Part shown: positions 965-61,712 of the stretch, piece after piece
Layout: each line of letters opens with the position of its first letter
How positions within the stretch are numbered: position 1 is the first letter of the stretch
Position numbers and translations under genes: made by a program
Assembly (NCBI RefSeq): GCF_004010195.1
Contig: NC_057719.1
Coordinates: 18,042,476 to 18,106,475, forward strand
Direction: 5' to 3'
Source of the DNA: Chiloscyllium plagiosum
Lineage: Eukaryota
DNA length: 64,000 nucleotides
The notes under the pieces: model-generated
The model's database searches: none
What the model was told of the DNA's origin: nothing
Seen by the model: only the letters and a program-made list of their open reading frames with translations

Positions 965-1072
965 GAGTCAATGAGTGTGTACTGGAAAAGCACAGCCAGT
1001 CAGTCAGGCAGCATCTGAGGAGCAGGACAGTCTACGATTCGGGCAGAAGCCCTTCATTAGGAATGAGGCTTG
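965..1072 (-). mobile_element. Short PLE-derived element, family A (pLTR fragment with degenerate hammerhead motif)
   Basis: Minus strand reads CCTCATTC-CTAATGA-A-GGGC-TTCT-GCCC-GAAT-CGTA..., followed by the family A body. Flanked by direct repeat GACCATGAGG(C/T)TGA at 951-964 and 1073-1086. Confidence 0.8.
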
Positions 1073-1561
1073 GACCATGAGGTTGAACAATGTGACACCA
1101 GCCTTACGATTGTATTCAGGCCTTTAGGTCAAATGGCTGGCTTTGGGGCCCACTCCAATCAAAAGCTGACTGCCTTCAGCTTAGACAAATAGAGAATTAA
1201 ATAAAATATATTTCTACAATCTAGAAAGAGATTGAATAGCTATCTCCTTTAAATTGAAGTTATTAGACTTGAGTAAGTACCTTCTTCCAAACAAAGTTAT
1301 TGAATATGTTATTGACTTCAAAGATTGGATGCATACCAACAACATTCAGGTCAATAAAGACTTGTAAATATCTTCCAGAAACCCACACCAACAGAACATA
1401 GACACACACTTTCCTTCAATTTAAAGTAGGGCATACTAAGTATATAACCTTACATTTCTCTTCAATTTAAGCCACCACAAACTGATAGACATTGGTCTCA
1501 GTCTAGGCTAGTGGGATTGCAATTATAACTCCCCAGGCCAGCAAAGTTTAGATATCATATA

Positions 1562-1775
1562 GAGGCAGAAAATACTGAGCAAACCTGTCAGAAGAGAGAG
1601 AGAAAAACAGAGTTAATGTTCCGGGGCTTTGACCCCTGGTCAGAATTGGTTTAAAGAGTCATCAATTTGAAACATGAAATCGCTCTCTCTCTCTGTCTTC
1701 CCACAGGTGCTGCCAGACTAGCTGGTTATTTCCATTATTTCCTGCTTTGATTTCAGATTTCCAGCATCTGCAGCA
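1562..1775. mobile_element. Old fold-back copy of PLE-like terminal repeat, family B
   Basis: Left part resembles 3885-4014 (...AGAAAAACAGAGTTAATGTT...GACCC...TCAGAA). Right part is the same family in reverse orientation, ending TTTCAGATTTCCAGCATCTGCAG. Confidence 0.55.
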
Positions 1776-3554: not shown

Positions 3555-4050
3555 TAATTCATTCACAAGATTTTTGATGTCACTGGCTAGACCAGTGTTT
3601 ATTGCCCTTCCCTAATTGTCCAGAGAACAGTTAAGGATCAGTTACCTTGCTGTGGGTCTGCAGTCACATGTAGGCCAGACCAGGTAAAGATGGCAGTTTC
3701 TCCCTAAACGGGGAAATCTTACACTTCCCTAAAGTGAGGTGGACTGATTTTTTTTCTTTCCTCCGACACTTTCATCGGCATCATTAGACTCTTAATTCCA
3801 GATTTTTAGCGATTTCAAGTTCCACAATCTGCTCAAGATTCAGGCTGAGGTCCCCAGCATATTTCCCGAGTCTCTAGATTAATATAAAACTAAGAACTGC
3901 AGGTGGAGGAAATCTGAAAAAAACCCATCAGAAATTGCTGGAGAAACTCAGCAGGCATCTATGGAGAGAAAGCAGAGTTAGCATAGCAGGTCCAGTGACC
4001 CTTCTTCAGAATGAATTAATAGTCGAGTGCCTCTCCTTTGCCCAGGAAAT
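3555..4050 (-). mobile_element. SINE with L2-like 3' tail, interrupted by a family B insertion
   Basis: Tail (CACTGGCTAGACCAGTGTTTATTGCCCTTCCCTAATTG) is the reverse of the tail at 9710-9770 and 41715-41780. Related copy at 18.9-19.2 kb. Confidence 0.7.
3885..4014 (-). mobile_element. Short PLE-like element, family B (hammerhead half-motif CTGAAGA plus hairpin)
   Basis: Minus strand CTGAAGA-A-GGGTC-ACTG-GACCT, with the GAAA box eroded. TSD ATTAATA at 3878-3884 and 4015-4021. Confidence 0.7.
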
Positions 4051-5882: not shown

Positions 5883-5980
5883 GCGTGCAATAAAGAATCG
5901 CTACCTCTTCTGTAAATAGCCTATTGGAATTTCAAAGGTACACTACACAAGGTGGGAAACTCAATGAATCAGATTCAAAA

Positions 5981-6122: not shown

Positions 6123-8805
6123 TGCCCAAAGTGGAATACCAACTCCATTTATCTGTTCCCAATTCACTTCTGAATTCGAGGCCTAGTGAAATTTAAGAAT
6201 GGCAGGAGAATAGTTATGACTTCTAACCATAATGGACACAAAATTGCAGAGCAACTGCTATGTTCCCAGGCTTATGCAAGTGCATAGATTTAGCCAAAAT
6301 ACTATGGTCTTTTTCAAATCCTACTGAAAACTGTGGGTGACAAATATATGCAGAGATGCAGCCCACCAGAAATGGGCAAGCAGATACACTGCTCTCTGGC
6401 AGGTTCGGTTTGGGGGGAAAGCTGCAGTGAGGTGATGAAGGAAGTGGAGGAGAGTGCCTGGAAGAGGCTGGTAACAGGCCATACTATTCGATGGGTGGGC
6501 ATGAGACACTCCTATTAATCCTGGTCCCAGCCAAATGAAACATCATCATTCATCGTCTGTGCTTGTTTCAGGTAGGAGCACTATGGTCCAGTCACAGCAG
6601 TTTTCATATATATAGTAGACTTGCGAGTCAATCACCCCATCCTTACCTCCCCAAAGAGCCCCATTTTCCAAGAATCTGAGTGTAATTTTGGTTGACTCCA
6701 TTTTATTTTTTAATTACGATATGCTGACACAAAAGCCACCTTTTATCCTTGCATGTTCAAGCAACGCAAAGAGATGTCCCTTATATCTGACTGGGAAGTA
6801 AAGAGCCCATTGTCCCTAGATTTTCATTTTTTTTCCTTTTTTCAGAAAAAAATCTTAAGGTGTGGTGATGTTGACAGACTCTTGTCTCCTTGGGGCAGAA
6901 ATGTTGTTTTCCAGAAAGCCCTTTAATCTTTCTTTTTAAAAGATTTAATTTGAGGTGTCGCATTTGAGATCTGACATAAAAATGTTGGCTTTACCCTTGT
7001 TATGAAAGTGATAGGTTATACTAATATCACAGAAAAGTAAGGCTGAGTAACTCACAGTAATGACCCATTCCAGACCAGCTTAACTCCTGCATCATGGTTT
7101 ACAGCTATTGCATCTATTTCATAACAGGCATACAGACATGAAAACCCCTTTTATTGCTTTGACTGTCACTATACAGCTATTAAATTGTGTACAGAAACAA
7201 TGGGCCAAACGGCCTCGTTAGCAGTTCATCAACCTATGAGTCTTTTGTTTGCGTTCTGCAGACCATTCAGAACTGTCCACTTTGTACATGGAAAACAATG
7301 ATTTTTGTCTATTTGTATTTTAATTACAAACTTTTCCTGTTAATATGCCATTCACTGCACATTATTAAGATGCGTGCAACGTGCCAAGACTTTTTCCTTA
7401 TCATAGCTAACCATGACCCCAGCAAACAGAAAATATTTTGATGTGACAGAGCTATTGAGTGCCATGAAAACGTGACTAGTGTAGCATTATCTTTAATAAT
7501 TTTGTTGACCAAACGGCTTTGGCATGAGTCAAACACATAGGAATGCCTTGCCCCCATTAAAACAAAATAGCTGCTTGGTGTGCAGATGGGCAAGATTTTG
7601 CTACAATGCTAAATCCCACAGCATTTCCAGGCAGTCTACTGCAGAGAGAGATACATTACCCACCAGTCTAGTAACCTCAAAATATTTTGCAACTCCTGGT
7701 GATCTAAAAGTCAGTGCATTTGTTTCTCCTGTGGGTGGAGGTGATTTGATTCTGGGACAGGATCTGTACCTAATTTCAGGCGGTTTTAGGATGCAATACA
7801 CAGCTAACTACAGGTAGTCTAATGCTTGCTGTGTCTAATTTCTCTTGTGCTCCAGATGATTTTGGCACTGTCTTGCATTATCACAGGAGGGATTTGAAGA
7901 CATTACTTCCTTTTCCATAAATCTGATCTTCCACAATCTCTGGAAGAACTGTCTGTGAATTCCCTTTATATCCTTCCTCTGACTGAGTGTTAGTGATCAA
8001 AAGATTGGACTGACCCTGCTTCTTGTATCTTGTCTGCTGCTGACTCATTACAGAATAGATGTGGCGGATAAATTGTATATCGGAAGAATGAGATGCATAA
8101 CAGGTACAAGTGATCTGAATCTTCACTGGAATTTAGGGTGTGACATGGGTCTCACATTAGACAGAGGCAGATTTAATTTTGAGTGTAGTTACGTAGAATG
8201 TGTAACACAGAAACTACATTTTCACTCACTGAGCCCAGATATTTCACGTTCTGTACAAAGCTCCTCCCAGACCACTTCACCAAGCCTGAACAGAGTCATT
8301 GTCCAGCTTTTAGAGTCTGATTTTAATTCAGCCTCAGTGTGGTGAACCTAACCTTAAAGCAGGGTTTTTGCTCCATCAATCTCAATGTATGGGAATAGTT
8401 CAGCTTCTTCCTTAATACTTCCTCATGCAGTCTCTGGCATCATTTCGCTGAAGTCGAGGAAAACATTCCTACTACTGTCCTCTGTACCATTGGATTGAAA
8501 CAATTTGTTTTGGTGTAGAAACATTGATAAGTCAGAAGCCAAAGAAGCCTACAGGAAGTAAAAAAAATCAAGAGTGATCCCTTTAGCATAATCATTCAAT
8601 GCACCACCTTGGGATGTTGCAAGGCGTTTCCCAGTGCCTGGACATTTGCCTGGATGGGTGCAGCTCCAATAACACTCAGGAAGCTGACGCTATCCAGGAC
8701 AAAGCAGTCGGCTTGATTGGCACCACATGAACAAACACTCACTCCCTCCAAATGCGCAGCGACCGTCTACTAAGTGTACTGCAGATATTCACCAAGTCTC
8801 CTTAG

Positions 8806-9459
8806 TTAAAAGTCACACACCAGACTATAGTCCAACAGATTATAATACACACTCTCTCATGTGCACTCACATGCACACACTCAAGCACACACTCACATGC
8901 CCACCCTCACATTCTCTCTCTCTCTCTCTTCCTCCCTAAATGTGCATGCACACACGTAAGTCTATGCGGTGAATTTGCATTTGCAGAATTGTATTTGCTC
9001 AAAAAGCAAACAATCTGCAGGCAGTCAATCCATGTAACATTTTATAAATTCCTACTTTGGAAACAGAACCAGTCTCACTCAAGATTGGGATTCAGAGAGA
9101 CTCCAACTCCACTCTTTCAATACATTGTCTGAGTTGAGATGTCACTTTTTTTTTATCAAACTTTAAATTATCTCAAGAATGTGACTTAAAAGAAGTTCTG
9201 GGATTTATATATTAATGAATCAAAACCTACAACCCATTCTAAAAGATGAAAGATTTAACAGCAATCTAGATTTGTTCAATATATCATTTTAATTACATGA
9301 CACTGTGATCTTTGCCTTATGATCCTGCACCATTAGTTACCTGATGAAGGAGCAGCGCTCTGAAAATTAGTACTTCCAAATAAACCAGTTGGACGATAAC
9401 CAGGTGTTATGTGATTTTTAAACTTTGTCCATCCCAATCCAACATCGACTCCTCCACAT
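8806..9459 (+). mobile_element. PLE-like non-autonomous element, family C, with short 5' inverted segment and hammerhead motif
   Basis: Perfect 13-bp TSD CAAGTCTCCTTAG (8793-8805, 9460-9472). The 3' 120 bp match 28747-28868. The first ~45 bp are an inverted copy of ~9380-9422. Internal CA/TC-rich tract. Confidence 0.85.
9338..9372 (+). ncRNA. Putative minimal type I hammerhead ribozyme (family C variant)
   Basis: UAC-CUGAUGA-A-GGAGC-agc-GCUCU-GAAA-A-UUA/GUA. Conserved core present; helix I UAC/GUA; 5-bp helix II; palindromic helix III AAUU. Confidence 0.65.
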
Positions 9460-9824
9460 CAAGTCTCCTTAGACAGCACCTTCTGAACACATGATTGTTG
9501 GCATTTAGAAAGACAAGGGCTGTCGACACCATCATGGGAGCACCACCATCTTCAAGCTTCCCTCCAACCCCACACCATCCTGACATGGAAATCTATCACT
9601 GACCTTTCAGTGTCATTAGTGCAAAGCCTTGAAACTCCTTCTTTAATGGCTTTTGGGTGCACCTACAGCACATGGACTGCAGCAGTTTACTGTTATTTTC
9701 TCAAGGGCAACTAGGGACTGATGGTAAATGCTGGCCAGACAGTGATGTCCAAGTCCTTTGAATGCATTTTAAAAATTGTTCCTTTTTAAGGATACATGCT
9801 TTTCTTGAAACCGTAATTGGGTCA

Positions 9825-13845: not shown

Positions 13846-13854
13846 TGCAAGCAC

Positions 13855-14892: not shown

Positions 14893-16160
14893 GCACAAAG
14901 ATAGACAGGAAAGTAATGTGTGAGGAAAGTATGAGGTGGCAAAAATCTTTTGAGAGATAGGCTAAGTGTGTGAAAACAGATCTGCCAAATGGAATACAAT
15001 GTGGGAAGATGAAATATTATCTATTTTGGCAGGAAGACTGAAAAAGAAACATATTAGCTAAATGGTGAGAGGTTGAGAGTTCTGAGATGAAGAGGGATTT
15101 GGGTGTTCCAGTACATGAATCACAAAAGGATAGTCTGCAGGTATGGCAAGTGATTCAGAAAGCTAATAGGATGCTATTATTAACTGTAAGAGGAATAAAA
15201 GACAACAAGAGGGAGGTCCTGTTCAGTTATAGAGAGCACTGGTGGGCACCACATCTCGGTACCATGCGCAATATTGGTCACCTTACTTATCAAAGGATGT
15301 AAATGCAATTCAGAGCAAGTTTTCCAGACTAATACCAGGTATGGGTGACTTGCATAACAAGGAGAGATTCTACAGACTCGGCTTGTATTTGCTGGCAGAA
15401 GAACGCCTCACCTTCCACCTTGGGACCCTTGAACCACCCAGCAACAACGTTGATTTCACCAGTTTCCTCATCTCCCCTCCCCCTATCTCATCCCAGATTC
15501 AAACCTCTAACTCGGCACCACCCTGTTGAACTGCCATCTTCCTTCCCATCTATCTGCTCCACCCTCTATTCCGACCTATCACCATCACCCCCACCTGCAT
15601 CCACCTATCGCCTTCCAAGCTACCTTTTATCCTAGCTCCACCCTTCTATTTATCTCACAGCCCACTTGGGCCATCCCCACATTTCTGATGAAGGGCTTAT
15701 GCCTGAAACATCAATTCTCCTACTCCCCTAATGCTGCCCAATGTGCTGTGCTTTTCCAGCACCGCACTTTTTTTGACTCTAATCTCCAGCATCTGCAGTC
15801 CTCACTTTCTCCTTGTATTTGCTCCTGTTTAAAAAGCAACAGGTTGCTTGACTGAAACATAATAAATGGGTCTTGACAGGATAGATGTAAAAATGCTGTT
15901 TTCTCACAGGAGAATCATGAAGTAGGGATTACTGTTAGAAAATAAAAGATCTCCCATTTAAAACAGAGTAAGGTGAATGTTTTTCTCAAAGAGGGCCATG
16001 AAACATTCATTCTCTCCACCTGAAAAAGCAGTGGAAGTGGACTCTTTAAATATATTTCTTGTTTAGCAAGGAAATGAATGGTTATCAGAAATAGACAGGA
16101 ATGGGGATTTGTGGTTGCAATCAGATAGCCATGACCTTATAAAATAATGGAGACAGGTGC
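14893..16160 (+). mobile_element. Older CR1 fragment interrupted by a Penelope-like insertion
   Basis: KRDLGVPVHESQK and QYWSPYLSKDVNAIQSKFSRLIPGM; the element resumes after 15812. Confidence 0.85.
15394..15811 (+). mobile_element. Penelope-like element 3' end (GIY-YIG C-terminus plus family A pLTR with hammerhead motif)
   Basis: Peptide EERLTFHLGTLEPPSNNVDFTSF resembles the C-terminus of vertebrate PLE GIY-YIG domains. A pyrimidine-rich spacer follows, then CTGATGA-A-GGGC-TTAT-GCCT-GAAA-CATC at 15685-15712. Perfect 12-bp TSD CTTGTATTTGCT (15382-15393, 15812-15823). Confidence 0.85.
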
Positions 16161-16835: not shown

Positions 16836-16838
16836 GGA

Positions 16839-16972
16839 CCTCATTCCCGATGAAGGGCTTATGCCCGAAAGGTCGAATCTCCTGCTCCTTGGATGCTGGC
16901 TGACCTGCTGTGCTTTTCCAGCACTGCACTCTTGACTTTGATCTCCAGCATCTGCAGTCCTCACTTTCTTCC
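16839..16972 (+). mobile_element. Short PLE-derived element, family A
   Basis: ATTC-CCGATGA-A-GGGC-TTAT-GCCC-GAAA-G-GTC-GAAT (helix I ATTC/GAAT; core U4 mutated), then the family body ending GCAGTCCTCACTTTC. Confidence 0.85.
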
Positions 16973-21050: not shown

Positions 21051-22496
21051 GTTTTCAGCACAAACAGAAGCTAAAATGACATCCAATTTAAAGTAATTAA
21101 GTATCATTCGAGATAGAACAAAGAACAATACACCTTTCAGCCCTCCAAGCCTGCACTGACACATTTTGACTTACCATACTAAAATTCCACTTATGGGATC
21201 CATATCACCCTATTCCTTTCCTATTCATGTATTCTTCCAGGTGCTTCTTGAATGCTGCTATTGTGTCTCCTTCCCACCATCTCCTCTTGCAGCGCGTTCC
21301 AGGCATTCACCACCCTTGGCGTGAAAAACATGCCTCGCACATCTCTTTTAAATGTGCCCCCCCGAACCTTGAACCTGTGTCTCCTAGTTTCCCTGGGAAA
21401 AAGCCTCATACTTCCCACTCTATCCATGCCATTCACAATCTTATAAACTTCTACCAGGTCGCCCCTCAATGCCCTGCATTCCAGTGAAAAGAAGTCCAGT
21501 CTATCCAACCCTTCTTCATAGTAAAAATCCCCTATACTCGGCAACATCCTGGTGAATCTTTTCTGTGAATCCTCTCCAAAGCATCCATATCTTTCTAGTA
21601 GTGTGGTGACCAGAACTGTACACAATATTCCAAGTGTGGCCTAATTAAAGTTCTATAAAGCTGCAGCATAACTCAATGCCCCTTCAAATGAAGGCAAGAA
21701 TGCCATAGGCCTTTGTTACAACCTTATCTGTCTACACTACTAAGGGATCCTTGGACCAGCACACTCAGATCCCGCTGCATATCAAGGCTCCTAAGGGTTC
21801 TGCTATTCACTGTATAATTTCCATCTGTATTTGACCTTTCAAAATGCATCACCTCACATTTGTTTAGATTAAACTCCGTCTGCCATTTTTCTGCCCATGC
21901 CTCCAACTGATCTATACCCTGCTGTATCCTCTGACAATCCTCCTCATCAATCTTTGCATCATTTGCAAACTTACTAATTAGATCAACTACATTTTCCTCC
22001 AAATCACTTATGTAGACCATGAACAGCAGAGGTCCCAGCACTGATCCCTGTGGAACACCACTAGTCATAGCCCTCCATTCCAAAAAGCATCCTTCCACTA
22101 CTACCCATGACTAAGCCAGTTCTGTATCCATCTTGCCAGCTCACCCTTGATACCATGTGACTTCACCTTTTGTACCAGTCTGCCATGAGGGAACTTGTCA
22201 AAGATTTTGTTGAAGTCCAAGTAGACAACGTCAACCGTTTTTCCCTTATCAATCCTTTACATCACCTCAAACAAGTTAGTGAGGCATGACCTCCCTCCCA
22301 CAATTAAATTCTGCCTATCACTAGTCAGTCTACTTACTTCTAAATGTGTATAGATCTTATCCCTGAGAATCTTTTCCAATAATTTCCCTACCACTGATGT
22401 AACGCTCTCAGGCATGTCACTTCCTGGATTATCACTGTTACCCTTTTAAACAATGGGACAATATTATATATTCTCCAGTTCTCTCTGACCTCACTT

Positions 22497-26848: not shown

Positions 26849-27048
26849 GTAGAAAGTGAGGACTGCAGATGCTGGAGATCAGAGTCGAGAGTGTGGTGCT
26901 GGAAAAGCACAACAGGTCAGGCAGCACCCAAGGAGCAGGAGAGTTGACATTTCAGGAATCCTGATGAAGGGCTTATGCCTGAAATCTCTGTTCTCCTCTC
27001 CTGTTGCCTGACCTGCTGTGCTTTTCCAGCACCACACTCTTGACCCCA
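26849..27048. mobile_element. Family A element, fold-back form
   Basis: Reverse arm 26851-26955 is joined to a forward arm starting GAATC-CTGATGA-A-GGGC-TTAT-GCCT-GAAA. TSD TTTATTTTGTTG (26837-26848, 27049-27060). Confidence 0.9.
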
Positions 27049-28650
27049 TTTATTTTGTTGTCTGCATTTCAAACTTACACATTGATCAGGAACAAAGAAT
27101 GCATTGCAATTAAAGTTATAGGTATTGGTGTCTGCACAACACACTGAACACGTTACAAACATTTTACAAAAATAGACCCTGAATTTCCTGCAAATGCTTT
27201 GTATGAGCTCACACAAATCTCTATTTCAATCCACCTCACTCCTGAAAACAGCTGTGAAATAAATAATCAAACACCTGGCTTTCTTAGTGGTAGCTGTTGA
27301 TCTGGATTCCAGATTTGCTCATTGGTTCTTCCTCAAAATAGTTCCCTGGAATTTTTTTTACATCATTCTGAACGGACAATGATTGCTTGTTTTAAATGTG
27401 CTGTAACCCAGTGAGGGAGGATGAACCAGCTCCCCGCTTTTCAAACTCCTTGGTTGACTACAATAGATTTGGCTCACTTCAGTTAACAAAAAATGGCCTT
27501 AATTAGTTCACCTGAAACAATCTAACAGCTAATTTCAAGGTTTTCTTCAGTGAAAGAAATGTGACTTTTATAACTTACTAACCTTGGGAAAAAGTATTAA
27601 AGATGCGACATCAAATGCACGCACAGACAATGGTACAATGCGGGAAAGAAAAGGAAAGACTATAACATGGAACTTAAAGTCTTTAGTGTGCACTGGATGT
27701 GTAAGGTGTTATCCTTAGAGCAGAGTTGGTCAGCAGTGTTTTGGATTAGCAGCAGCTGTGAATTTTACAAATAACTTTGAGTGCTTGGTATTAAGATGCT
27801 TCTCCAGTTTGTGCTGTCAGTGATTGCTTTGTACTTGTTGAGTGAAAGCAGATAAAGAGTGAGAGAAAGCAAGGGAGAGACCTTCTCCCTGTACCAGTTA
27901 TAAATCCATCTCACTTCCTTCTGTCAAAAGCAGTTGTTTGAAACACAGTTGATTCACATGTTCCCATGTTTGGGTTTATTGTCTCCAAACTGGATAACTG
28001 TAGATGATTATTTGATATCCAATGTATGAACTTTTGATAAAATTATAATCATGGAAGAGGTACAGATCTCTGTTATCAATTTCTTTGAAAACATATTAAT
28101 TTCAGTTCAGACTGATTCTAGTTTATTGCTGGTTTCATGAAACTTGACACAACCAGTGGTCAGATGATTATTGCGGCCATTTTTAATCCAGTACCTTTCT
28201 CTATCTGAAATGATTTCACAAAGACCAGTACTTGGGCCTTAGCTGGCCACTATATATATCAATAATTTGGATAATCAGGCTAATTATAATCTTTCTCAAT
28301 TTCCAGGTGACTCCATAAGACTGAGGAGTAGAAGTAGTCCATTCAGCCCATTGTGTTTTCTCCACCATTCAATGAGAGCATGACTGATCTGATATTCTTC
28401 AATTCCATTCCTGCCTTTTCCCCATTACCCATGATTCCCTTACTGATACAAAGTTGAATGGGAATGATTGGTGGGGTAGACTGATGGACTGAAAAATCTA
28501 CTCTTGTTCTTATATTCCCAAGTTGCAATTGCAGTCCGTGAATGTCCGATGATGTTTATCAAAAATTCGTTGTCTGTATTGCATCACTATTGTAACAAAT
28601 ATCACGGTCGAGAGACAGCAACTCCAAAATTGCAGCAGTCTTTCAGCAGT

Positions 28651-28868
28651 TAAAAAATCACACAACACCAAGTTATAGTCCAACAGGTTTAATTGGAAGC
28701 ACACTAGCTTTCGGAGCGACGCACCTTCATCAGGTGGTTCCACAAGCACCTGATGAAGGAGCGGTGCTCCAAAAGCTAGTGTGCTTCCAAATAAACCTGT
28801 TGGACGATAACCTGGTGTTGTGTGATTTTTAACTTTGTACACCCCAGTCCAGCATCGGCATCTCCAAA
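28651..28868. mobile_element. Family C element, fold-back form with hammerhead motifs on both strands
   Basis: ~85-bp inverted arms (28651-28736 and 28747-28832) with a ~10-nt spacer. Perfect 12-bp TSD TCTTTCAGCAGT (28639-28650, 28869-28880). Confidence 0.9.
28702..28736 (-). ncRNA. Putative minimal hammerhead ribozyme (family C)
   Basis: CAC-CUGAUGA-A-GGUGC-guc-GCUCC-GAAA-G-CUA/GUG. Core intact; helix I CAC/GUG; palindromic helix III AGCU; one mismatch in helix II. Confidence 0.7.
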
Positions 28869-31765
28869 TCTTTCAGCAGTGTATTACTCCTTTATCCAGT
28901 TGTAAGAATGTTCAAGTCACTGCCAGGGAGATTGAGTGAAATGAATGCCATATCACACATATATTGAAAAGAAAATCAAACACAAATATGAATAAGAAGG
29001 GAATAGTTGGTTTCAAAGCTACATTTTGTTAAAGAAAGTGGGAGGCAGCAGTGGAACGTAAACTTTGACATGGACTCAATGATCTTTTCTTGTCCTATAT
29101 TTCCAATTTCCAAGTGCAGCAGTGATGCACTTGTTAATCTGCTCAAGTCTTTGGAGTGGAGTTTAAACCCATTCTTCTTAACCTTTCATCAGGAGTCTTA
29201 CCATAGAGCAACAACTGGCAGAATAGAATCTTAACCCTGAGATTCAGGAGTTCACACCTGGCTTCATACTCAAGGATGACCTGAGTTGAAAGTTCATATT
29301 GATGCTGGCTGACTTGCTCAAAATTGCCATTTGCTGCTCTGGCCAAATGCAGTAATATGTAATCATGTTAATCCTTGATATTTCTTGAGTAGAAGTAAAG
29401 GTAACAGTGAAGTCAGCACCAACCTACTGCTCTCCCATTAGAGAGAGGTAATTGGTGGTGACTTCATCTTAGGGTTACCACAGGTCAGGCTAAGGGGGAG
29501 GTTGAGAAGGAGAGCTCTTGCTGGTAACCTCAGGCAGTGCAAGAATTGAACCCATACTGTTGGTATCACTGCACTGCAAACCAGCCAGCTAAGCTAGTGA
29601 ACTCCTTCAATTCCTGCTTTAAAGACCTCCGACTGGCCACTGTTCCAAACCTCAGTCATGATGTTGCTGTGGAAGTGGTGTGGAGTGAGGTGAAGCCGGC
29701 CTACTCTGTCCACTGGTGCAGTATTGAATTCCAACTCAAGGTCCTGATCCCTGTAAAATCTAAATAAACACATTGTCATTTGGTTCTATTACAAAGCAAA
29801 GTGTACACGCGCACACACACTTCCAGAGTGGGTGGAGCAATAGGAATTTCAGACTACTGATTTAGGGATTATTCTTGTTTAAGAAAAGCAACTCAGTCAA
29901 ATACACAATGCTTTGGCGAGTCTTGGCATATGTTTTAAAAGTATTCTGTATAATTCAGTTTTGATCATTTTGAAATAAAGTGTAGTTTAGAAGACAAAGG
30001 GAGAGAGTAACTCTTTAATCTGTGTGAGAGAATTAATTCAACGGTGTCTGGTTAGTTAATTACTTTATCCAAGATGCTTGCAAAAAGTAAAATATCAACA
30101 AGAGAATACAGTTGATGCTGGCAAGGGAGGGGTTGAATTGGCCTTTCATCAATGATTCTTGGCTTTTTCTGAAGGGCAAGTGTCTAGAGATGTGGAATCG
30201 TTCCTTTTAAGTATACTGTACTGTGGAGCTTTCTAACCTAAATATGCCCCAAGCAAGGCTTTTATCCAGACTTTCAGCCACAAGACAGCCACTGAAATAT
30301 TCATACAAAGTTAAGTGTGCCACGGATGTTTTTCCCTCCATTCGTCCACCACAATGGATTTCACATCAAGGTCAGTAAGGAGAGTAATGCAGAACTATAA
30401 AAGTTCTAGTCTCAAAAGAATTAAACAAAGTAAGTGAAGTCTTATTCTCTTAGCCTGGCTAAGGATTGTACAAGCCTTTATAGAGAAAAATCTGTTAATG
30501 CATTAAACTTTTGAGATTATGCCTTCAATTTGAAATGACTGTAATGGAGAGGACATCAGCAGTAAAAATTCTCAGCTTATTTTTTAGTAACTTGTGACAT
30601 TCTTGCAAAGTAGTAAAGGGTTCCTGGTGAGCATCTAACTAATGTTTCCCAGTCACGTATCCATATAGGTAATGGCAGCAGACAAAAAAAAACAAAGATA
30701 TTTCAGGATCTCAACTAATTTACTCAGCAAATTGCAATGTCACTTTCTTTTCAATAGAACAATTTTCAAGAGGTTTAGCAGCTTATAGTTTGACATTCAC
30801 ATTGGCTTGACTTGAGGCATTAGTAATAAGAGAAGTTGGCATGAATGAGGGCATTAAGTTCCAATTAACTTTGGTTTAAATAGTTCCATTGACTCATTCA
30901 ATAATCCTTTGGTCAGTTTCAATTCTTGAAACAGTCACTCAACCCTGGAAACCCCCAGGTTGAAATATTCACACCATAATAGCTAACATGACCTTGAAAG
31001 TATATCATACAATATTATGGGCCGAATATTTCATCCTTTCATGTGAAATTTCTTCATGTGCTATTTTAAGGGACGTCTTAATCCACTTGTATGAAACCAG
31101 TCAAATGCTGCACCAAAGAATTTCATGTGAAGGCATCCAGCACCCATATGCAACTCCTACATTACACAATCTGTTGATGCATATTTCAATTCAAATATGG
31201 TTCAATGTTTTATTTAACAGCATCCCTACTAGATATAGGATCAATTGAATGTCCCCTTTTGTACCCCACAGATATGCATAACTATATTACAGTTCAAATT
31301 GCACACCTCAACTCTGAGCAAGCCCCCCCTCAACAGTGCCACCATTACCAACGACCTCCCAACTGGGAGTGGGCTAGCAAATTTGGGGGTGGGGATCAGT
31401 GGCATTAAATTGAACATGATAATAAGGGAGTTGGAGGTGGGGTGATAGTGGTGATGGTTCCTTACCACAGCCTTCCTGCAACTTACTGACATTTTACTGG
31501 CTACAAACGACTTAGAAAGCAACCCACTGAATTTAGGCCAATTGATGGTGTTACGTGGCTAATTCACCATCTGCAGAGGTCATCTCGCAGGTTCAGACTG
31601 GGTCTCTCCTGACCAGGTAGTGCTCACGGCCCATGGAGGCATCCCTCAGCGTAAAAGGGCTGACCCCTTGGGACGGTCACCCCACCTCTCCCACTATACT
31701 CTTGAGGTCATTACCTCCTCTGTTGCAGAGACCTACCTCATTGGTCCCAATGATTCCCACTTACA

Positions 31766-32235
31766 GCATAGTGGTTCGGTTAGCACTGTTGTCTCACAGC
31801 ACCAGGGACCCAGGTTTGATTCCAGCCTCAGGTGACTGTCTGTGTGGAGTTTGCACATTCTCCCAGTGTCTGTGTAGCCATGCTCTGGTTTCCTCCCACA
31901 GTCCAATATGCAGATTAAGTGAATTGACTATGCTAAATTGCCCATAGTGTTCAGGGATGTGTAGGTTGGTGCATTAGTCATGGGTAAATGTAGAGTAATA
32001 GGGAATGGGTTTCCTGATGAAGGGCTTTTGCCCGAAATGTCGTATTTCTTGCTCCTTGGATGCTGCCTGACCTGCTGTGCTTTTCCAGCCCCACTCTAAT
32101 CTCGACTCTGGTTTCCAGCATCTGCAGTCCTCACTTTTGCCTAATGGGTTTGGATGGGCTACTTTTCGGAGGGTCAGTGTGGACTTGTTGAGCTGAAAGG
32201 CCTGTTTCCACCCTGCAGGGATTCTATTCTATTCG
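31766..32235 (+). mobile_element. HE1-like V-SINE interrupted by a family A element
   Basis: tRNA-like head, V-domain and (ATTCT)n tail; split at 32013-32142. Confidence 0.9.
32013..32142 (+). mobile_element. Short PLE-derived element, family A, starting at the hammerhead core
   Basis: C-CTGATGA-A-GGGC-TTTT-GCCC-GAAA-T-GTC. TSD AATGGGTTT (32004-32012, 32143-32151). Confidence 0.9.
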
Positions 32236-37160: not shown

Positions 37161-37281
37161 ACTAATCCAGCAGGGGAATGGGAACCAAAATTGTAGTTCG
37201 AGTGTAGAAAAGATTGAGAGTAGGGAGGTCCAAAATCAAGTTTCAGGGACGCAAGATGGCACCGGCAAGCAAGAAGTTGGT

Positions 37282-41780: not shown

Positions 41781-43818
41781 AGACCATGACATTATTTAAG
41801 TGAGGGTCAATCAATTGAGAAAGCTCTTTTATGAAAGCTGTCCACTCAGAGTCTGCCACATCATGCAAAAAACTTGATCAACAACATATTGCACGAGTAG
41901 ACAGCATGGTCCTCTATGACTTTAAAGGGCTCACCCAATACACAGAGGTTAGTTGCAAGTTTGTTGTTTTAGGCTAATGGTTAACCATTGAATGTGTTTG
42001 CTCAATATTTACCAAATGGTTTCCCAGTATGATTGCATTTTAATGTCTCAGATGTCACGTGATAGAGTCATAGAGTCACAGACAAGTACAGCACGGAAAC
42101 AGACTCTTCGGTCCAACTCATCCATGTCAACCAGATATCCTAACCTAATCAAATCCCATTTGTCAGCACTTTGCACATATCCCTCTAAACTCTTCTTATT
42201 CATATACCCATCTAGATGCCTTTTAAATCGTACAACTGTAGTAGTCTTCACCACGTCCTCTGGCAGCTCATCCCATATATGGACCATCCTCTGTGTGCAA
42301 GAGTTTCCTCTTAGGTCCCTTTTATATCTTTCCACTCTCACCCTAAATCTATGCCCTCTTGTTCGGGACTCCCCCACCCCAGGGAAAAGTCTTTGTCTAT
42401 TTATCCTATCCATGCCGCTCATGATTTTGTAAACCTCTATAAGGTCCACCCGCAGCCCCCGACGCTCCAAGAAAAACAGCCCCAGCCTATTCAACCTCTC
42501 CCTGTAGCTCAATTCCTCCAACCCTGACAACATCCTTGTAAATTCTTTCTGAACCCTTTTAAGTTTCACAACATCCTTCCGATAGGAAGGAGACCAGAAT
42601 TGCACGCTATTCCAAAAGTGGCCTAACCAATGTCCTGTACAGCCACAACTTGACCTCCTAATTCCTATACTCAATGCTCTGACCAATAAAGGAAAGCATA
42701 CCCAACGCCCTCTTCACTGTCCTGTCTACCTATGACTCTACTTTCAAGGAGCTATGAACCTGCATTCCAAGGTCCTTTGTTCAGCAAAACCCCCAAAGAC
42801 GTTACCACTAAGTGTAGAAGTCCTGATCTGATTTTGCTTTTCCAAAATGCAGCACCTCACATTTATCTAAATTAAACTCTATCTGCCACTTCTCAGCCCA
42901 TTGGCCCACCTGATCAAGGTCCCGTTGTGCTCTGAGGTAACCTTCTTTGCTAACCATTAGACCTCCAATTTTGGTGTCATCTGCAAATTTACTAACTATA
43001 CTTCTTATGTTCACATTCAAATCATTTATATAAATGACAAAAAGTAGAGGACCCAACACTGATCCTTTTGGCACTCCACTGGTCACGGGCCTCCAGTCTG
43101 AAAAGCTCTCCACCACCACCACCTCTTCTACCTTTGAGCCAGTTCTATATCCAAATGGCTAGTTGTCCCTGTATTCCATGAGACCTAACCTTGCTAACCA
43201 GTCTCCCATGGGGAACCTTGTTGAACGCCTTACTGAAGTCTATATAGATCACATCTACCATTCTGGCCTTGTCAATCCTCTTTATTACTTCCTCAAAAAA
43301 CTCAATCAAGTTTGTGAGACATGATTTCCAATGCATAAAGCCATGTTGACTACCCCTAATCAGTCCTTGCTTTTCCAAATACATGTAAATCCTCTCTCTT
43401 AGGATTCCCTCCAACAACTTGTCCACCACCGACATCAGGCTCACTGGTCTATAGTTCCCTGGTTCTTCCTTACCACTTTTTAAATAGTGGCACCACGGTA
43501 GCCAACCTGCAGTCTTCCAGCACCTCACCTGTGACTATCAATTAACAAATATCTCTGTAAGAGGTCTAGCAATCACTTCCCTAGCTTCCCACAGTGTTCT
43601 CAGGTACACCCAATCAGGTCCACTTTTATGCATTTCAATACATCCAGCATCTCCTCCTCTGTAATATGGACATTTTTCAAGAGTTCACCATCTATTTCCC
43701 TACATTCTATATCTTCCATGCCCTTTTTCACAGTAAATACTTATGCAAAATACTCATTTAGTATCTCCCCCATCTCCTGTGGCTCCACACAAAGGCCGCC
43801 TTGCTGATCTTTGAGGGG

Positions 43819-43910
43819 ATTCTGGATCAGTGGTGCTGGAAGAGCACAGCAATTCAGACAGCATCCGATGAGCAGGAAAATCGACGTTTCAGGCAAAAGC
43901 CCTTCATCAG
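43819..43910 (-). mobile_element. 92-bp family A element inserted in CR1 ORF2
   Basis: Perfect 13-bp TSD GATCTTTGAGGGG (43806-43818, 43911-43923). Explains the foreign peptide PDEGLLPETSIF...LIQN between two PLKD copies in ORF 43741-44196. Confidence 0.95.
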
Positions 43911-43916
43911 GATCTT
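43877..43916 (-). ncRNA. Putative minimal type I hammerhead ribozyme (family A, best-preserved copy)
   Basis: AAGAUC-CUGAUGA-A-GGGC-uuuu-GCCU-GAAA-C-GUC/GAUUUU. All core nucleotides and a GUC triplet present; 6-bp helix I with one G-U; palindromic helix III ACGU. Confidence 0.75.
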
Positions 43917-45645
43917 TGAGGGGCCCCATTCTCTCCCTAGTTACCCTTTTGCCCTTCATGTATTTATAAAAACTCTTTGGAATCTCCTTAACCCTATTTG
44001 CCAAAGCTGTCTCATGTCCTCTTTTTGCCCTTCTGATTTCCCTCTTAAGTATACTCCTACTGCATTTATACTCTTCTAAGGATTCTCTTGATCTCTCCTG
44101 TCTATACCTGACATATGCTTCCTTCTTTTTGTTAACCAAAACCTCAATTTCTCTAGTCATCCAGCATTCCCTACAACTACCAGACTTTCCTTTCACACTA
44201 ACAAGAATATACTGTCTCTAGACTCTTGTGATCTCTTTTCTGAAGGCTTCTCATTGTTCAGCCCTCCCTTTACCTGCGAACATCTGCCCCCAGTCAGCTT
44301 TTGAAAGTTCTTGCATAATACTGTCAAAATTAGCCTTCCTCCTATTTAGAACTTCAACTTTTAGATCTGGTTCATCCTTTTCCATCACTATTTTAAAACT
44401 AATATAACTATGGTCATTGGTCCCAAAGTGCTCCCCCACTGACACCTCAGTCACCTGCCCTGCCTTATTTCCCAAGAGTAGGTCAAGTTTTGCACCTTCT
44501 CTCGTAGGTACATCCACATACTGAATCAGAAAGTTTTCTTGTACACACAACACATTTCTCTCCGTCTAAACCCTTAACACTATGGCAGTCCCAGTCTATG
44601 TTTGGAAAGTTAAAATCCCCTACTAGAACCACCCTATTATTCTTACAGATAATTGAAATTTCCTTGCAAATTTGTTTCTCAATTTCCCGCTGACTATTAG
44701 AGGGTCTATAATACAATCCCAATCAGGTGATCATCCCTTTCTTATTTCTCAGTTCCACCCAAATAACTTCCCTGGATGTATTCCCAGGAATATCCTCCCT
44801 AAGTACAGCAGTAATGCTGTCTCTTATCAAAAACGCTACCTCTCTCCTGCCCACCCCACCCCACCCCACCCCACCCCTCCCTGTCTATCCTGGAGCATTA
44901 ATATCCTGAAACATTAAGCTGCCAGTTTTGGTCAAACCTGAGCCATGTTTCTGCAATTGCTATGATATTCCAGTCCCATATTCCTATCCATGCCCTGAGT
45001 TGCTTGAGATTCTACAGATCTGGTCAGCTTAGAATATTTCCCATGAGTCATTTATCTTATCCCCAATACACATTTAGCCCTAAAATGTAATCACCACACT
45101 TACCTACTTCCATCTTCACCCTAGCCGATCAGCCCTTCACTTTAGTTGAAATATAATCACAGTACCAAACCCAGAGGCAAAATTAAATTTATTGAAAAAG
45201 CAAAGTCCATCTTTTTCTAATATTTAATAGAAATGGTTATGAATTGCTCTTGTACAATCTCTTGGTGCCTATCGTCTGCACTTGTTTCCCATTCTACTAT
45301 TCCTATAAAGTGTTGCCCCAATGACTATAACTGATTATTTCCTCTAAGGGCAGTTCAGTGGCCTTACTGGGTGTCTGTATGCAGCTGAGGACCTTGAGAA
45401 CTGACCTTAAATTGTGGTATGGTAACACTGTTTAAGTAGGTACTGGTTCTGGTGGGCAAAGGGATGGTTGTCATCCCAAGGAAATATTCTCCAGGCGTTG
45501 CAATCAAAGTCACTTTGCCGGAACTGACCTTCACATTTGCAGAGATTCAGGATAAAGTGTCAACACTGACCCCAGAATGAAGCTAATTGAGCAATGGTGT
45601 GAACTGTTATGGAAGTTTCCAACTAATTAGGTGCTCTCTACATTT

Positions 45646-45838
45646 GCATCAAAAAGTGTGGTGCTGGAAAAGCACAGCTGGTCAGGCAGCATGCGAGGAG
45701 CACATTCCTGATGAAGAGCTTACATTCAAACCATCAACTCTCCTGCTTCTCAGATGCTGCCTGACCGGTTGTGTTTTTCCAGCACCACACTTTTTGACTC
45801 TGATCTCCAGCATCTGCAGTCCTCACTTTCCCCTACTG
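45646..45838. mobile_element. Family A element, fold-back form
   Basis: Reverse arm 45649-45711, then CACATTC-CTGATGA (helix II eroded) and the full body. TSD TCTACATTT (45637-45645, 45839-45847). Confidence 0.85.
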
Positions 45839-49166: not shown

Positions 49167-49719
49167 AACCTCAGCTGTTCTATCTGACATTGACATCCTG
49201 CTGCTGTCTTTCCCTCTCTACAAGACATCGTACCTCTCATTTCATTAATGTAATTAATTTCAAACAAAATTGATTGCGACAGATTAGAATGTAAGTTACT
49301 ACAGATTTAAAATAATGGAGGTTAAACTGTTATTTAATGGCAACTTCAATTAAACTTGCATCCCACAACATAAGTATTCCTTATAGTTTTATTAAATATT
49401 TGAACCTTGATCCTTTTGCTTGTGTAATGTTATTGGTACTTATTTTGAATGATGTGATATTGTTATCTAAATTAGCCCTAGACTTAGACAAACCTTCTTC
49501 TTTATAGAGCAACGTTTTAACTTGAACTTCGAGATGACAGATGCTAAGTTTAGTTTCTCAGGTGAGTGACGACAACAGTCTTACTTTTTTCCCCTCAGCT
49601 TACTGTATACTTTACTGGACAAGAGTCCTTAAGTGTGATATCATCTGCAAAAGCATAAATGTTTTTCTCCCACTGGTGCTAAGCGTTACATTACAGATGA
49701 TGAACAGAGGAAATGGTCA

Positions 49720-49901
49720 GAGCTGAAAAATGTGTTGCTGGAAAAGCGCAGTAGGTCAGGCAGCATCCAAGGAGCAGGAGAATCGACGTTTCGGGCATAA
49801 GCCCTTCCTGCTCCTTGGATGCTGCCTGACCTGCTGCACTTTTCCAACAACACATTTTTCAGCTCTGATCTCCAGAATCTGCAGTCCTCACTTTCTCCCA
49901 G
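49720..49901. mobile_element. Family A element, fold-back form
   Basis: Arms 49717-49780 and 49806-49868 are near-perfect reverse complements. The loop holds the hammerhead 3' half (minus: GGGC-TTAT-GCCC-GAAACGTC). Perfect 13-bp TSD GAGGAAATGGTCA (49707-49719, 49902-49914). Confidence 0.9.
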
Positions 49902-50430: not shown

Positions 50431-50439
50431 ATTCTGTTA

Positions 50440-53882: not shown

Positions 53883-54186
53883 AGTGAGCTTTGAGAAGAT
53901 TTGTAGCTTAAGTTGAGGTTCTGGATGTGGGTTTACTCGCTGAGCTGGAAGGTTCATTTCCAGACATTTCGTCTCCTTACTAGGTAACATTTTCAGTGGG
54001 CCTCAGACGAAGCACTGCTGAAAATTCCTGCTTTCTATTTGTATGTTTTTAAAATATATTTACATATAAATAGAAAGCAGGAATTTTCAGCAGTGCTTCG
54101 CCTGTGGCCCACTGAAGGTGTTACCTAGTAGGGTGACAAAACGTCTGGAAATGAACCTTCCAGCTCAGCAAGCAAACCTACATCCA
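53883..54186. mobile_element. Fold-back dimer of the family D Penelope pLTR (two degenerate hammerhead motifs)
   Basis: Arms 53922-54046 and 54062-54186 are reverse complements and match 57431-57590. Degenerate TSD TAGT(CG/TT)GGTGTT (53871-53882, 54187-54198). Confidence 0.9.
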
Positions 54187-57002: not shown

Positions 57003-57007
57003 GAAAC

Positions 57008-57430: not shown

Positions 57431-58340
57431 TAGTTTTGAGAAGATTTGTAGCTCAGGTTGAGGTTCCGGATGTAGGTTTTCTCGCTGAGCTGGAAGGTTC
57501 ATTTTCAGACGTTTCGTCACCATACTAGGTAACATGTTCAGTGAGCCTCCAGATGAAGCATTGTTGATGATTCATGCTTTCTATTTATATGTTTGGGTTT
57601 CTTTGGGTTGGTGATGTCATTTCCTATGGTGATGTCATTTCCTGTTCTTTTTCTCAAGGGGTAGTAAATTGGGTCCAAGTCAATATGTTTGTTGATAGAG
57701 TTCCGGTTGGAATGCCATGTTTCTAGGAACTCTCGTGTATGTCTCTGTTTGGTTTGTCCTAGGATGGTTGTGTTGTCCCAGTCGAAGTGGTGTCCTTCTG
57801 CATCTGTATGTAAGGATATTAGTGAGAGAGGGTCATGTTGTTTTGTGGCTAGTTGATGTTCATGTATTCTGGTGGCTAGTTTTCTACCTGTTTGTCCAAT
57901 GTTGTGTTGTTACAGTCCTTGCACGGTATTTTGTAAATGACATTAGTTTTGCTTGTTGTCTGTATTGGGTCTTTCAAGTTCATTATCTGCTATTTTAGTG
58001 TTTTGGTGGGTTTGTGGGCTACCAATGATGCCCAAGGGTCTGAGTAGTCTGGAAGTCATTTCCAATATGTCTTTGATGTAGGGGAGAGTGGTTAGGGTTT
58101 CTGGACATGTTTTGTCTGCTTGTTTGGGTTTGTTGCTGAGAAATCTGTGGACTGTGTTCATTGGGTACCCGTTCTTTTTGTATACACTATATAGGTGATT
58201 TTCTTCTGTTCTTCGTAGTTCCTCTGTGCTGCAGTGTGTGGTGGCTTGTTGGAATAATGTTCTAATGTGGCTCTGTTCGTGGATGTTGGTGGGGTGATTG
58301 CTTCTGTAGTTCAATATTTGGTCCATATGTATTGTTATCT
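57431..58340 (-). mobile_element. Penelope-like retroelement, 5'-truncated (RT thumb/linker, GIY-YIG endonuclease, family D pLTR)
   Basis: DQILNYRSNHP...KNGYP...LPYIKDI, then KTNVIYKIPCKDC / IGQTGRKLATRIHEH / REFLETWHS across frameshifts, then a terminal repeat with a hammerhead motif. Confidence 0.92.
57505..57544 (-). ncRNA. Hammerhead ribozyme motif in the family D pLTR (one core mutation)
   Basis: UCA-CUGAACA-U-GUUACC-uaguau-GGUGAC-GAAA-C-GUC/UGA. G8 is changed to C, so this copy is probably inactive. Confidence 0.6.
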
Positions 58341-60341
58341 ACAGGAAAGGTTAATCAAGGCCTCCTTGTTTCGTACTATATGTTCTGGTTTATAAAGGCT
58401 AGGATGTTGCGTGCTTTATTAACAGTTTTCTGAACGTGCCCTGCCACTTTCACACATTTCCACAGGTCTCCATTCCTGATCTTCTTATAGCATTGTATCC
58501 TTTATTTTCTGTTGCACTTCTTCATTATTCCCACCAAAATGAATCACTTCATGAAGCCCCATTGCACTCAGGTTAGTTGCCAGAATTGGATACTCTGAGA
58601 TATAATGTGAGGAAAAGACACATTTTATGTAATGTATGAAATGGCTTGAAGCAGTCATTGTGCTCATTAAGTTAAGAATGGTGCATGTGGAGATTTCCAT
58701 TGTTCAGTAGTGGCCTAACAGTGTGATTATATATCCATTCTGCCTAAATGAGCTTGGAAAGATGGTGGAATATTAAATCTTCAGAGCTTTCCTTGTGAAA
58801 TAATTTTCCTCCTATCAGAAAAAAAACAAGGCTTGGTAACCATTTTAAGTTTTCATGTTTCACTGGTCAACCGCAATTTTTCACTTTAGTGTAACTAGTA
58901 GCTTCACAAAAATACTGAACATTGTTGGAAAAGTAATACATTTGTAGCAGTCAACAGAGTATATTTTCAAATGAGCTAAACCAAACAAAAATACAGAACT
59001 CCTGAGAAACTGAAGCAAACCTTGTGGCAACCACAAACTAATTGCTAGTGAGGGAAATTGTAACTGTTACAAATTTTGAATATAAGAGGCAAATTTGCTT
59101 GTAACTGGTGCCAATTCCTTGTACTGTCTGCAAACTATTCATTACCGTTTTGGCAGAGGCTTTGCTGCTTCTGTTGTAATTCTGCCGCTCTCCGGAATGA
59201 GTGTCATCCCTTTGTCAGGGGGCCAAATAGCAGCTCCACCACTGAATACACTCTGTGTGCATTTTAACTGGACCCATTAACTGCCTATGCTTTCCTGAGA
59301 ATGAGCACTTTACTGAGCTCCCAGCTAAAATCACTGGCCTTTGAACAGCGAAGAGGGCAAGAGGAATCATCGGCATTGACTCGGTTTAGCTGTGGTAGGT
59401 TCTTGTCAAACGCACTTCTTCAGGACCGCCTCTGTGAAGTGCTATGCCCAGCAGGAGTGTGGAACGTAGTTGCTCTTTAATCGTGCTCCTGAGCTCATGT
59501 TCCTCACTTTTTAAAGGAGGGCTGAGTGCATCACATCAATGAGAAGAGCTAGCGCAGAACTTGGTTGCAGACTTTCTCCTGTGCCCTATGCTGAGCATGG
59601 TACCATATATTTTCTATATCTATATGTCATTTATTCTTTGTTTCTTGCTAGCATTAGCAGCTAATTGCTATCACAATTGTCTCCTTGCCACACAAATACG
59701 GAGACTATTCTTCTTGTTGAAATTATGAGTGTTCAATGTTAATGATATCAAACCATAAACACAGATGTTTTCAAGTTGCATTCCACAGTGCCATCAAAGG
59801 AAGCAATCTGTTGACATTCTCAGAGTCTAATGAACTACCAGCCCCAATATTATGACTAATGGCCAAAGCTATACATGTGCACATGCATGGGATTTATGAA
59901 TGTCGAAATTACAGTAGAAATCTGAACGTTATTTTCAAGATTCTGTGGCTGACATTAATGTCTTCTATTGCATAGGCTATTGAGAATAAATCTGTAACTC
60001 GCTGCCTGTTTCATACCAGCAACAAAGAGCTACCCAGGCAATCCCGATTTTAGTGCTTTGTGGAATTCTTTTTTTAAAGATTTGCTCAATCTCTGCCTGT
60101 GAACACCACTCACCTTTGGCTCTGATTGAACATCACCTCAAAATGAGGGCAAGGTGGTGAGAGCCATGGAAAGAAAGCTGAGAATCGGAGGATGGAGAAA
60201 GACTGGTCCTGTTCAAATTACCTTCCAACAATCAATTCTCAGAGAGTTAAAATGTTACTGCTCATCAGAAGGCCATTTGACTCATCGCATTTGTACCAAC
60301 TCTTTGGTAGAATCATTGGTTAATCCCACTCCCCTGCTCGC

Positions 60342-61712
60342 CTGTTGAGTTTCTGCCACACTCTCTGTTGTTCTTTCAAATTTCCAATGTCCGCAGTTAT
60401 TTGTGCTTACTGTACTGAAGTGTTGTTTAGGCTTCTGAAGCTGGGCCTGAACACTGAATTTCCTGACGTAGAATTAACGGTGTTACCAACATGGAGTGAA
60501 TGAGGACTGCAGATACTGGAGATCAGGGTCAAAAAGCACAGCAGGTCAGGCAGCATCTGAGGAGCAGGAGAGTCGACATTCTGGGCATAAGCCCTTCATC
60601 AAAATAGACAAGTTGGCAATACACGTCAACCAAAACAATTCCATGCCACATTCAAGGGTATTTGATACTTATTGCTATTTATTTAAAATCAAGGATTTAA
60701 ATCACAAGTTGATATAAAAAAGAGTATTTCCTCATGGCCCCTATGATTCTTTTCGCAATTACCTTGAGTTGAGGCTGGGCAGCAGCTAACTACAAGCACA
60801 ACTTGCTAGATTGCCAGTCCAATAAGATGTACCTTAGATGGCTTAAGGCAATGATTTCAAAATGCTATTGTATGGATCACACTGTCCCATCTGAAAATCT
60901 AGATACATTCCAAGCAACCACCCTGCCCTGGCATGTTTGCATGATGAAAAGCATAAAAACTTGGCTGACCAGAGAGAAATGGTGCATTTGGCAGAAACAA
61001 TTTGATAATAGTACATGAAGTGACAGAAATAAAAGCTAGCAAGTCACAGTCTGAAAATGGAAGGTAGAATTCTAACGGTATTGTACTAGTGCTGTGTGAT
61101 ATTCCTGGCCCAGTACTGACACACTGTAAACCCGTTGAGGATCCTTTTGGGATCTGCTCTGCAAAGCTAGTTTGAAAACCACAAAATCAATGAACTTAAA
61201 AAATGACGACTAGCTTTATTTTGTGTTTAAACCAAAAGGCTAATGATCCAGGGAAAGGATCATTTAATAGATTTTTTTTAATATAAGCTTGGAAGGACTT
61301 GCCTGCATTAACTAAATATCACACACATGTTATATTCAGCTCCAAACAACAGGCTATATAAAAAAAAGGATAGGCAGCAAACACCCCTAAATGTGGCATG
61401 GATTGTTTTAGTTGATTTGTATTGCCAACTTGTCTATGTTGGTGAAGAGCTTATGCCAAAATGTCGAATCTCCTGCTCCTCAGATGCTTCCTGACCTGCT
61501 GTGTTCTTCCGGTGCCACACCTTTTGACCCTGATCTCCAGTATCTGCAGTCCTCATTCCCTCCATGTTGGTAACACCGTTAGTTCTACATCAGGAAATTC
61601 AATGTTCAGGCCCACCTTCAGAAGTCTAACCAACGCTTCAGTACAGTAAGGACAAATAACTGTGGACATTGGAAATCTGAAAGAACAACAGAGTGTGGCA
61701 GAAACTCAACAG
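60342..61712. repeat. ~330-bp inverted duplication (arms 60342-60672 and 61370-61712, ~700-bp spacer)
   Basis: Unique sequence and an embedded family A element align in reverse complement, e.g. TAGACAAGTTGGCAATACA / TGTATTGCCAACTTGTCTA and AACGGTGTTACCAACATGGAG / CTCCATGTTGGTAACACCGTT. Confidence 0.92.
61444..61563 (+). mobile_element. Family A element (mirrored at 60493-60600 on the minus strand)
   Basis: GAAGAGCTTATGCCAAAATGTCGAATC... body; TSD ATGTTGGT (61436-61443, 61564-61571). Confidence 0.85.

Follow-up and report, generated by a model that had tools for sequence, protein, structure and literature searches.

Why do so many short hammerhead-bearing repeats begin just upstream of the ribozyme core, rather than at the bond that the ribozyme is predicted to cut? 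The question is raised by a 64,000-nucleotide stretch of the Chiloscyllium plagiosum genome (contig NC_057719.1, positions 18,042,476 to 18,106,475; the window), in which copies of such repeats lie scattered as solo elements and as head-to-head pairs. The short elements are pieces of the pseudo-long terminal repeats (pLTRs), with or without a tail, of Penelope-like elements (PLEs), the closest retroelement relatives of telomerase, and the question they bear on is how PLEs turn internal priming into pLTRs, tails and inverted copies. Their 5' ends pile up 4-8 nt above the core, probably since reverse transcriptase (RT) starts in the leader of the element mRNA and runs off its capped start.

All element positions are counted from the C of CTGANGA (CUGANGA in the RNA), which is position 0; the predicted cleavage bond of family A is then +27/+28. 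Breakpoints were mapped in a genome sample of 140 evenly spaced 10-kb stretches (1,352,701 non-N bases, ~1.35 Mb of a 3.56-Gb genome). A motif scan gave five families, A, B, C and two D subfamilies, with 116 of 128 hits grouped. Family A yielded 277 alignments in sample and window, made against subfamily references, and 225 random arms (solo copies or halves of pairs) were retained at an identity of at least 80%, with a 3' end at or beyond +70 and away from edges and gaps. The density of family-A arms is ~0.18 per kb, which extrapolates to ~650,000 genome-wide if the sample is typical.

The element open reading frame (ORF) lies on the pLTR strand; it terminates upstream of the pLTR and restarts after the pLTR and tail. 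Aligned long copies of family A contain RT and YIG motifs within a single ORF on the pLTR strand, and families B and D have an endonuclease region upstream of the pLTR; a Pfam search of two short decayed pieces from the window gave no match. The features of endonuclease-positive (EN+) PLEs are present, namely an ORF with RT and C-terminal GIY-YIG, a hammerhead in the pLTR at both ORF start and ORF end, and an adjacent inverted, 5'-truncated copy within one target-site duplication (TSD). A cysteine linker precedes the endonuclease in A and B and none was seen in D; by this linker and by likeness, rather than by an RT tree, A and B appear to be Neptune-type and D resembles the anole Poseidon element. 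The hammerheads have the parts of the minimal type I form (CUGANGA, helix II, GAAA, NUH and helix I, from the motif scan) and are predicted to self-cleave; an Rfam search of the window did not detect them. Where a family-A copy includes the ORF start, one uninterrupted frame spans the hammerhead, the rest of the pLTR and the tail and continues into the ORF; in most subfamilies the first in-frame AUG lies in loop II at +13. The peptide read from this AUG onward (loci L211-L230) has a hydrophobic, signal-peptide-like beginning, and subfamilies with TTTTG or CTGTG in the loop, among the same loci, have no loop-II AUG.

The 5' ends and the base that precedes them

Of the 153 family-A arms (out of 225 random ones) that extend as far as +6, 108 have their stop in the interval +6 to -9, a rate of 0.065 per nt as compared to 0.003-0.009 in six other bins (7-19x). 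The peak persists when solo arms are taken separately (45/73), and family B has 31 of 55 arms stopping in +6 to -10, although only one of 31 random family-D arms stops in the corresponding region. The mode, which we refer to as the wall, is at -4/-3 in A and at -8 in B. The initial annotation had proposed from the window that short elements end at the hammerhead core and not at the cleavage site, and this is borne out in the genome sample, where few family-A arms stop at +27/+28 and the breakpoints peak at the ribozyme instead of declining smoothly with length. A shoulder of stops extends from -3 to +60; in family A the increase already amounts to 2-3 fold between +32 and +7. Copies that run into the ORF begin at the same wall (four of 14 in family A, at -3, -4, -4 and -5). 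When 228 real long copies were cut uniformly at random, 226 were recovered and the peak bin held 25 true and 23 measured ends; an alignment artefact arising from subfamily differences upstream of -4 was removed with the subfamily references and excluded by this type of simulation. Two 5' junctions carry templated inserts, one a direct repeat of +5 to +29 before a -4 start (L109:5081-5108) and the other a short inverted copy of the target flank (L088:7110-7130).

Genome-wide exact patterns list the base preceding the wall, with base counts made by eye. For family-A starts at -4, matched with a non-consensus base ahead of them, these are G60/A27/T13 among the first 100 listed of 6,615 matches, and before family-B starts at -8 they are G77/T14/A9 among the first 100 listed of 1,427; one base inside the B wall the distribution is G22/C21/T57 among the first 100 listed of 823. 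The chance expectation for G is 26%, and the B excess has a Fisher p of 4e-15. Family-A starts at -3 are preceded by G in one of about 21 cases. At B loci with context, G follows unrelated flank in 11 of 12 arms at -8 (6/7 when no inverted arm abuts), and in general the sequence ahead of the G is unrelated where flanks can be seen. The family-B wall lies 30 nt downstream of a TATAAA starting at -38, and the five family-A references examined keep a CATTTAT or TTTTAT at -39 to -36 while their spacers diverge. By the usual promoter spacing rules a TATA-like box lies 30-35 nt above the start, and we infer that the wall is the transcription start. The extra G is likely a copy of the cap, a mark that is also described at full-length L1 junctions (PMC11702581). 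Where family-B starts lie one base inside the wall, the T excess at -8 would fit a pair of cDNAs that have annealed at their tips, each with a cap-derived C at its end.

Priming sites, inverted pairs and the origin of the wall

The 3' ends of family A cluster at +87 to +93 and +122 to +126, as expected from two internal priming sites near +90 and +123; the family-B sites would be at +91 and +123. In vitro, the anole Poseidon element PAc is reported to prime internally at two tail-defining sites with extension of both strands, and its hammerhead is dispensable (PMC11167929). RNA reads were taken from a single run, X19, a 3' poly(A) library of which ~2 in 100 were read; run X20 yielded none. Poly(A) follows +57 in 330 family-B reads and +60 in 416; both positions are 12-15 nt below an A(A/T)TAAA at +40 to +45 and precede a GU-rich tract, and a poly(A) end at this place is absent from all 165 genomic family-B hits. 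In this family, and in this family only, a poly(A) site thus lies inside the repeat and upstream of both presumed priming sites, so an RNA ending at +57/+60 has priming sites solely in its 5' pLTR, 100-130 nt from the cap. The B repeat carries a working sense poly(A) site (L233:1533-1553; window 28750-28810 is of the same family), through which intronic copies could end host transcripts early. The family-A RNA read alignment only mirrors genomic copy structure.

Sample and window contain 63 inverted pairs, with a TSD found for 28. In 52 of 60 random pairs only one of the two arms is tailed, and in no pair are both; solo arms are tailed in 52 of 97 cases. The farther arm ends between -9 and +6 in 46 of the 60. 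Their junctions comprise 19 with microhomology overlaps, three blunt and 38 with short inserts, some overlaps (judged by eye) using GAA/TTC or helix-I letters, and the helices may have a role in placing where inverted arms join. Three of 13 young B pairs (L239, L241 and L246) have arms distinguished by variants of the subfamily type, which suggests that two RNA templates were used; an A/T difference at +88 between B arms was left unused for this purpose, as the query selected for it. The pairs are consistent with one cDNA being primed on each target strand, in some cases from separate RNA templates, and with the two being joined by their 3' ends; the remaining pairs may include snap-back of a single cDNA (cf. 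PMC11371274).

We propose that priming would occur at about +90 or +123 of the 5' pLTR, as it does in vitro for the anole element, and that RT would run to the cap, giving a strong-stop-like cDNA of 95-130 nt. This product would be joined to the target alone, or annealed by its 3' end to a second cDNA made from the other target strand, with trimming at the joining step producing the shoulder from -3 to +60. The hammerhead would mark the wall only because it sits at the very start of the transcript. [quoted passage not shown] More tentatively still, Neptune-type PLEs may replicate in a retrovirus-like manner without being LTR elements: the pLTR would be a true U3-R-U5, leader priming from both nicked strands would give strong-stop cDNA to the cap, transfer to the 3' R would be obligatory for copying the ORF, the mini-elements, present in hundreds of thousands in shark-like genomes, would be failed transfers, and the hammerhead in R would be a switch removing the cap and, in A, the first in-frame AUG.

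Several observations weigh against this account. The peak is 16 nt wide and exactly -4 starts are found in only 16 of the 225 random family-A arms. Family D has TATA-like boxes at -48/-53, yet no wall 30 nt below; in one young D subfamily 5/30 ends lie in -8 to +5, and in another (D2, L261-L290) 7/30 lie in -81 to -64, near CCGGAAG, a possible start site further upstream. Older family-A copies have a weak G signal (8/20 at -4 as compared to 29/115 elsewhere, in sampled loci), and an inverted arm can template some of the Gs, there being three such overlapping pairs on contig 1. No pile of RNA starts appears in the A or B read alignments, X19 being a 3' poly(A) library. The reads with poly(A) are all from this run and may represent host transcripts that end within embedded copies, and no family-A poly(A) site is present among the 6 of 90 loose ends shown. 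Long copies could also derive from read-through RNA without strand transfer.

The same wall and the same G would be expected if a separate, short, capped RNA, non-autonomous and resembling a short interspersed element (SINE), started at the wall and was mobilised in trans, short copies begetting short copies. Non-autonomous PLE derivatives are known (bioRxiv 10.64898/2026.07.22.740005), and short family-A arms outnumber long ones (104 vs 49). The short-only master lineage of a PLE-dependent SINE is, however, not seen, all five family-A types being common to short and long arms. In addition, the 60 pairs have 56 distinct junction coordinates, short copies have no upstream TATA box, ORF-bearing copies begin at the same wall, and a B RNA ending at +57/+60 would miss both priming sites. 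We consider such an RNA unlikely. The initial annotation, which offered a dedicated short RNA starting above the core as one possibility, thus appears right in placing an RNA 5' end there, but this is most likely the capped start of the ordinary element mRNA, which is favoured because the five A types occur in both size classes and ORF-bearing copies start at -3 to -5.

The other possibility offered, that RT stalls on a longer RNA at the folded hammerhead and truncation or template switching results, fares less well, also when a hammerhead-bound protein is made responsible, and we regard it as very unlikely. The family-A wall does overlap the 5' strand of helix I (-4 to -1), stops are already elevated over +32 to +7, protein assists hammerhead folding in the anole element according to PMC11167929, and the one young D subfamily has its 5/30 ends near the core. 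The stall lacks support because RT arriving from the 3' side meets helix I at +28 to +31 first, and by -4 all helices have been copied, such that the ends lie past their 5' edge; the B wall at -8 is 5 nt above its helix I, which begins at -3. Family D has its own hammerhead but no such peak (1/31 random arms, and 1/30 in the other young subfamily), and folding of the hammerhead region is weak and similar in A, B and D (-7 to -12 kcal/mol; five A and B copies gave z-scores of +0.4 to -1.5). Nor does a stall predict that an extra G would be confined to a single position.

That hammerhead self-cleavage makes the template 5' end, or that the template is a ligated circle and the wall secondary, is scarcely credible: 15 of 194 arms do stop in the cleavage region (+32 to +24), a few of them exactly at +28/+29, and circular intermediates are proposed by Cervera and De la Pena (PMC4209133), but the stop rate of 0.0090 (0.006 under strict filters) is not above the 0.0092 of the neighbouring bin, in agreement with the earlier reasoning that cleavage cannot directly explain these ends, several of the arms near the bond are from other families, inverted partners or deletion-bearing, and a circle offers no reason for stops at -4 or -8. 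Splicing as the cause of the wall (cf. the D. virilis intron end in PMC4209133) was rejected, there being no AG at -4 or -8 and no common exon upstream of the short copies. Within the family-A pLTR, +50 to +77 (e.g. window 16893-16921) does contain a branch-point-like CTGAC, a pyrimidine tract and a CAG, together resembling a 3' splice site; at a 30% threshold, the family-A RNA read alignment lists no splice joints.

Copies in the window

The copies in the window are as follows, with element positions relative to the core.

965..1072, minus strand: solo pLTR of family A without a tail, spanning -12 to +91, flanked by a 14-bp TSD that has one mismatch
3892..4014, minus strand: copy of a third hammerhead family, C, running from about -5 (read by eye) to +122, with the core C at 4009
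9176..9460, plus strand: long copy of family B with its core at 9341, from about -181 to +120
15385..15812, plus strand: long family A copy with decayed GIY-YIG endonuclease ORF end, 3' untranslated region, pLTR and tail, core at 15685
16839..16969, plus strand: family A solo copy with tail, -8/-6 (16839-41) to +123, TSD not found
26851..27044, both strands: family A head-to-head pair, minus arm tailed, +14/+17 to +123, plus arm tail-less, -2 (26959) to +89, 16-bp TSD
28648..28872, both strands: family B head-to-head pair, minus arm -6 to +84, plus arm -11 to +122, junction at 28739
32011..32142, plus strand: solo, tailed copy of family A, from -3/-1 (32011-13) to about +128, 9-bp TSD that overlaps the start by 2 nt
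43829..43912, minus strand: family A solo copy, tail-less, -2/0 (43910-12) to +81, 13-bp TSD
45649..45833, both strands: family A head-to-head pair, minus arm +36 to +89, plus arm -7/-5 (45701-03) to +125, 12-bp TSD
49717..49898, both strands: family A head-to-head pair, minus arm +5 (49807) to +95, plus arm +32 (49805) to +125, 13-bp TSD
53896..54186, both strands: head-to-head pair of the Poseidon-like family D, an exception to the rule in that its junction (-53/-51) is far above the core
57441..58338, minus strand: long copy of family D comprising a decayed ORF for the GIY-YIG endonuclease, a pLTR and a tail
60493..60601, minus strand: family A copy starting at +1, a local inverted duplicate of the 61440 copy
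61440..61563, plus strand: family A copy with tail, starting at +1

The distances from 5' end to core that were first read from the window largely hold. The exception is the pair joined at 28739, which measures -11 and -6 rather than 3-4 nt. The copy with its core near 61444 does begin inside the core, although it counts as one event with the copy ending at 60601 because their flanks are shared; the local inverted duplication (60489-60650 and 61390-61567) takes in the family-A copy together with its flanks. No head-to-tail hammerhead array of the kind sought for a non-LTR retrozyme is present in the window, where copies are solo or head-to-head. Rfam microRNA matches in the window are the palindromic pairs and not microRNAs, and a weak Rfam U6 match at 16341 is a dispersed repeat. 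Further family C-like and family B fragments lie at 1691-1773, 60341-60402, 61670-61763 and 8804-8846. Decayed ORF fragments of long interspersed elements, which from their motifs we take to be CR1/L2-like, are found at 21221-24047, 36147-40047 and 42048-44217, with the copy at 43829-43912 inserted in one of them.

Comparison with known systems

In LTR retroelements, priming near the RNA 5' end and run-off at the cap give minus-strand strong-stop DNA, which then undergoes the first strand transfer. Family B has a similar U3-R-U5-like order, with TATA at -38, start at -8, poly(A) at +57/+60 and priming at +91/+123. The systems differ in that the PLE primer is nicked target DNA and not a tRNA, and that PLEs have a GIY-YIG endonuclease and no integrase; moreover, the short product itself integrates here, and strand transfer is only proposed. 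The genomic record gives a probable start site, two priming sites and a family-B poly(A) site; from their order, a short cDNA made by run-off and an obligatory template jump would be expected. Run-off at the cap would account for a large repeat class, and hints that PLEs may copy themselves more like retroviruses than has been thought.

Published work already covers this class of element, its minimal hammerheads, its tails and inverted copies, and priming at internal sites. Canonical EN+ PLEs (PMC8557442, PMC3846280) are described as having the same ORF with RT and C-terminal GIY-YIG, pLTR hammerhead, optional tail (30-40 bp there, ~33 nt here), head-to-head inverted copies and TSDs of 9-20 bp. 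Truncation is described there as variable, whereas most ends here are at one wall with a cap-like G, and palindromes are explained there by self-priming, possibly on an antisense template, whereas here 52 of 60 pairs have exactly one tail. The anole element PAc (PMC11167929) shares two adjacent tail-defining internal priming sites near the ORF start, nicking and extension of both target strands, and a hammerhead overlapping the ORF start; in the available text of that account the transcript start and poly(A) site are unmapped and a multi-copy transcript is assumed. Its closest match here, family D, is without a wall, whereas A and B have one. The minimal metazoan PLE hammerheads (PMC4209133) have the same type I core and palindromic helix III stub, and occur as thousands of solo motifs with some close opposite-strand pairs. 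The solo motifs are described there as probably being truncated PLEs, with no mapped breakpoint in the passages concerned, and the cleavage or circle route proposed there does not fit the ends reported here. Among titles, abstracts and passages searched, which did not extend to older subscription reviews (2005-2006), no report of cap-marked or strong-stop PLE ends was found.

Full-length L1 (PMC11702581) likewise has an extra G at complete 5' ends, and snap-back junctions of R2 (PMC11371274) similarly join inverted sequence after full-length cDNA synthesis. Both L1 and R2, as described in those sources, prime at the RNA 3' end, so that reaching the capped end yields a full-length copy, whereas here it yields a copy of 95-130 nt.

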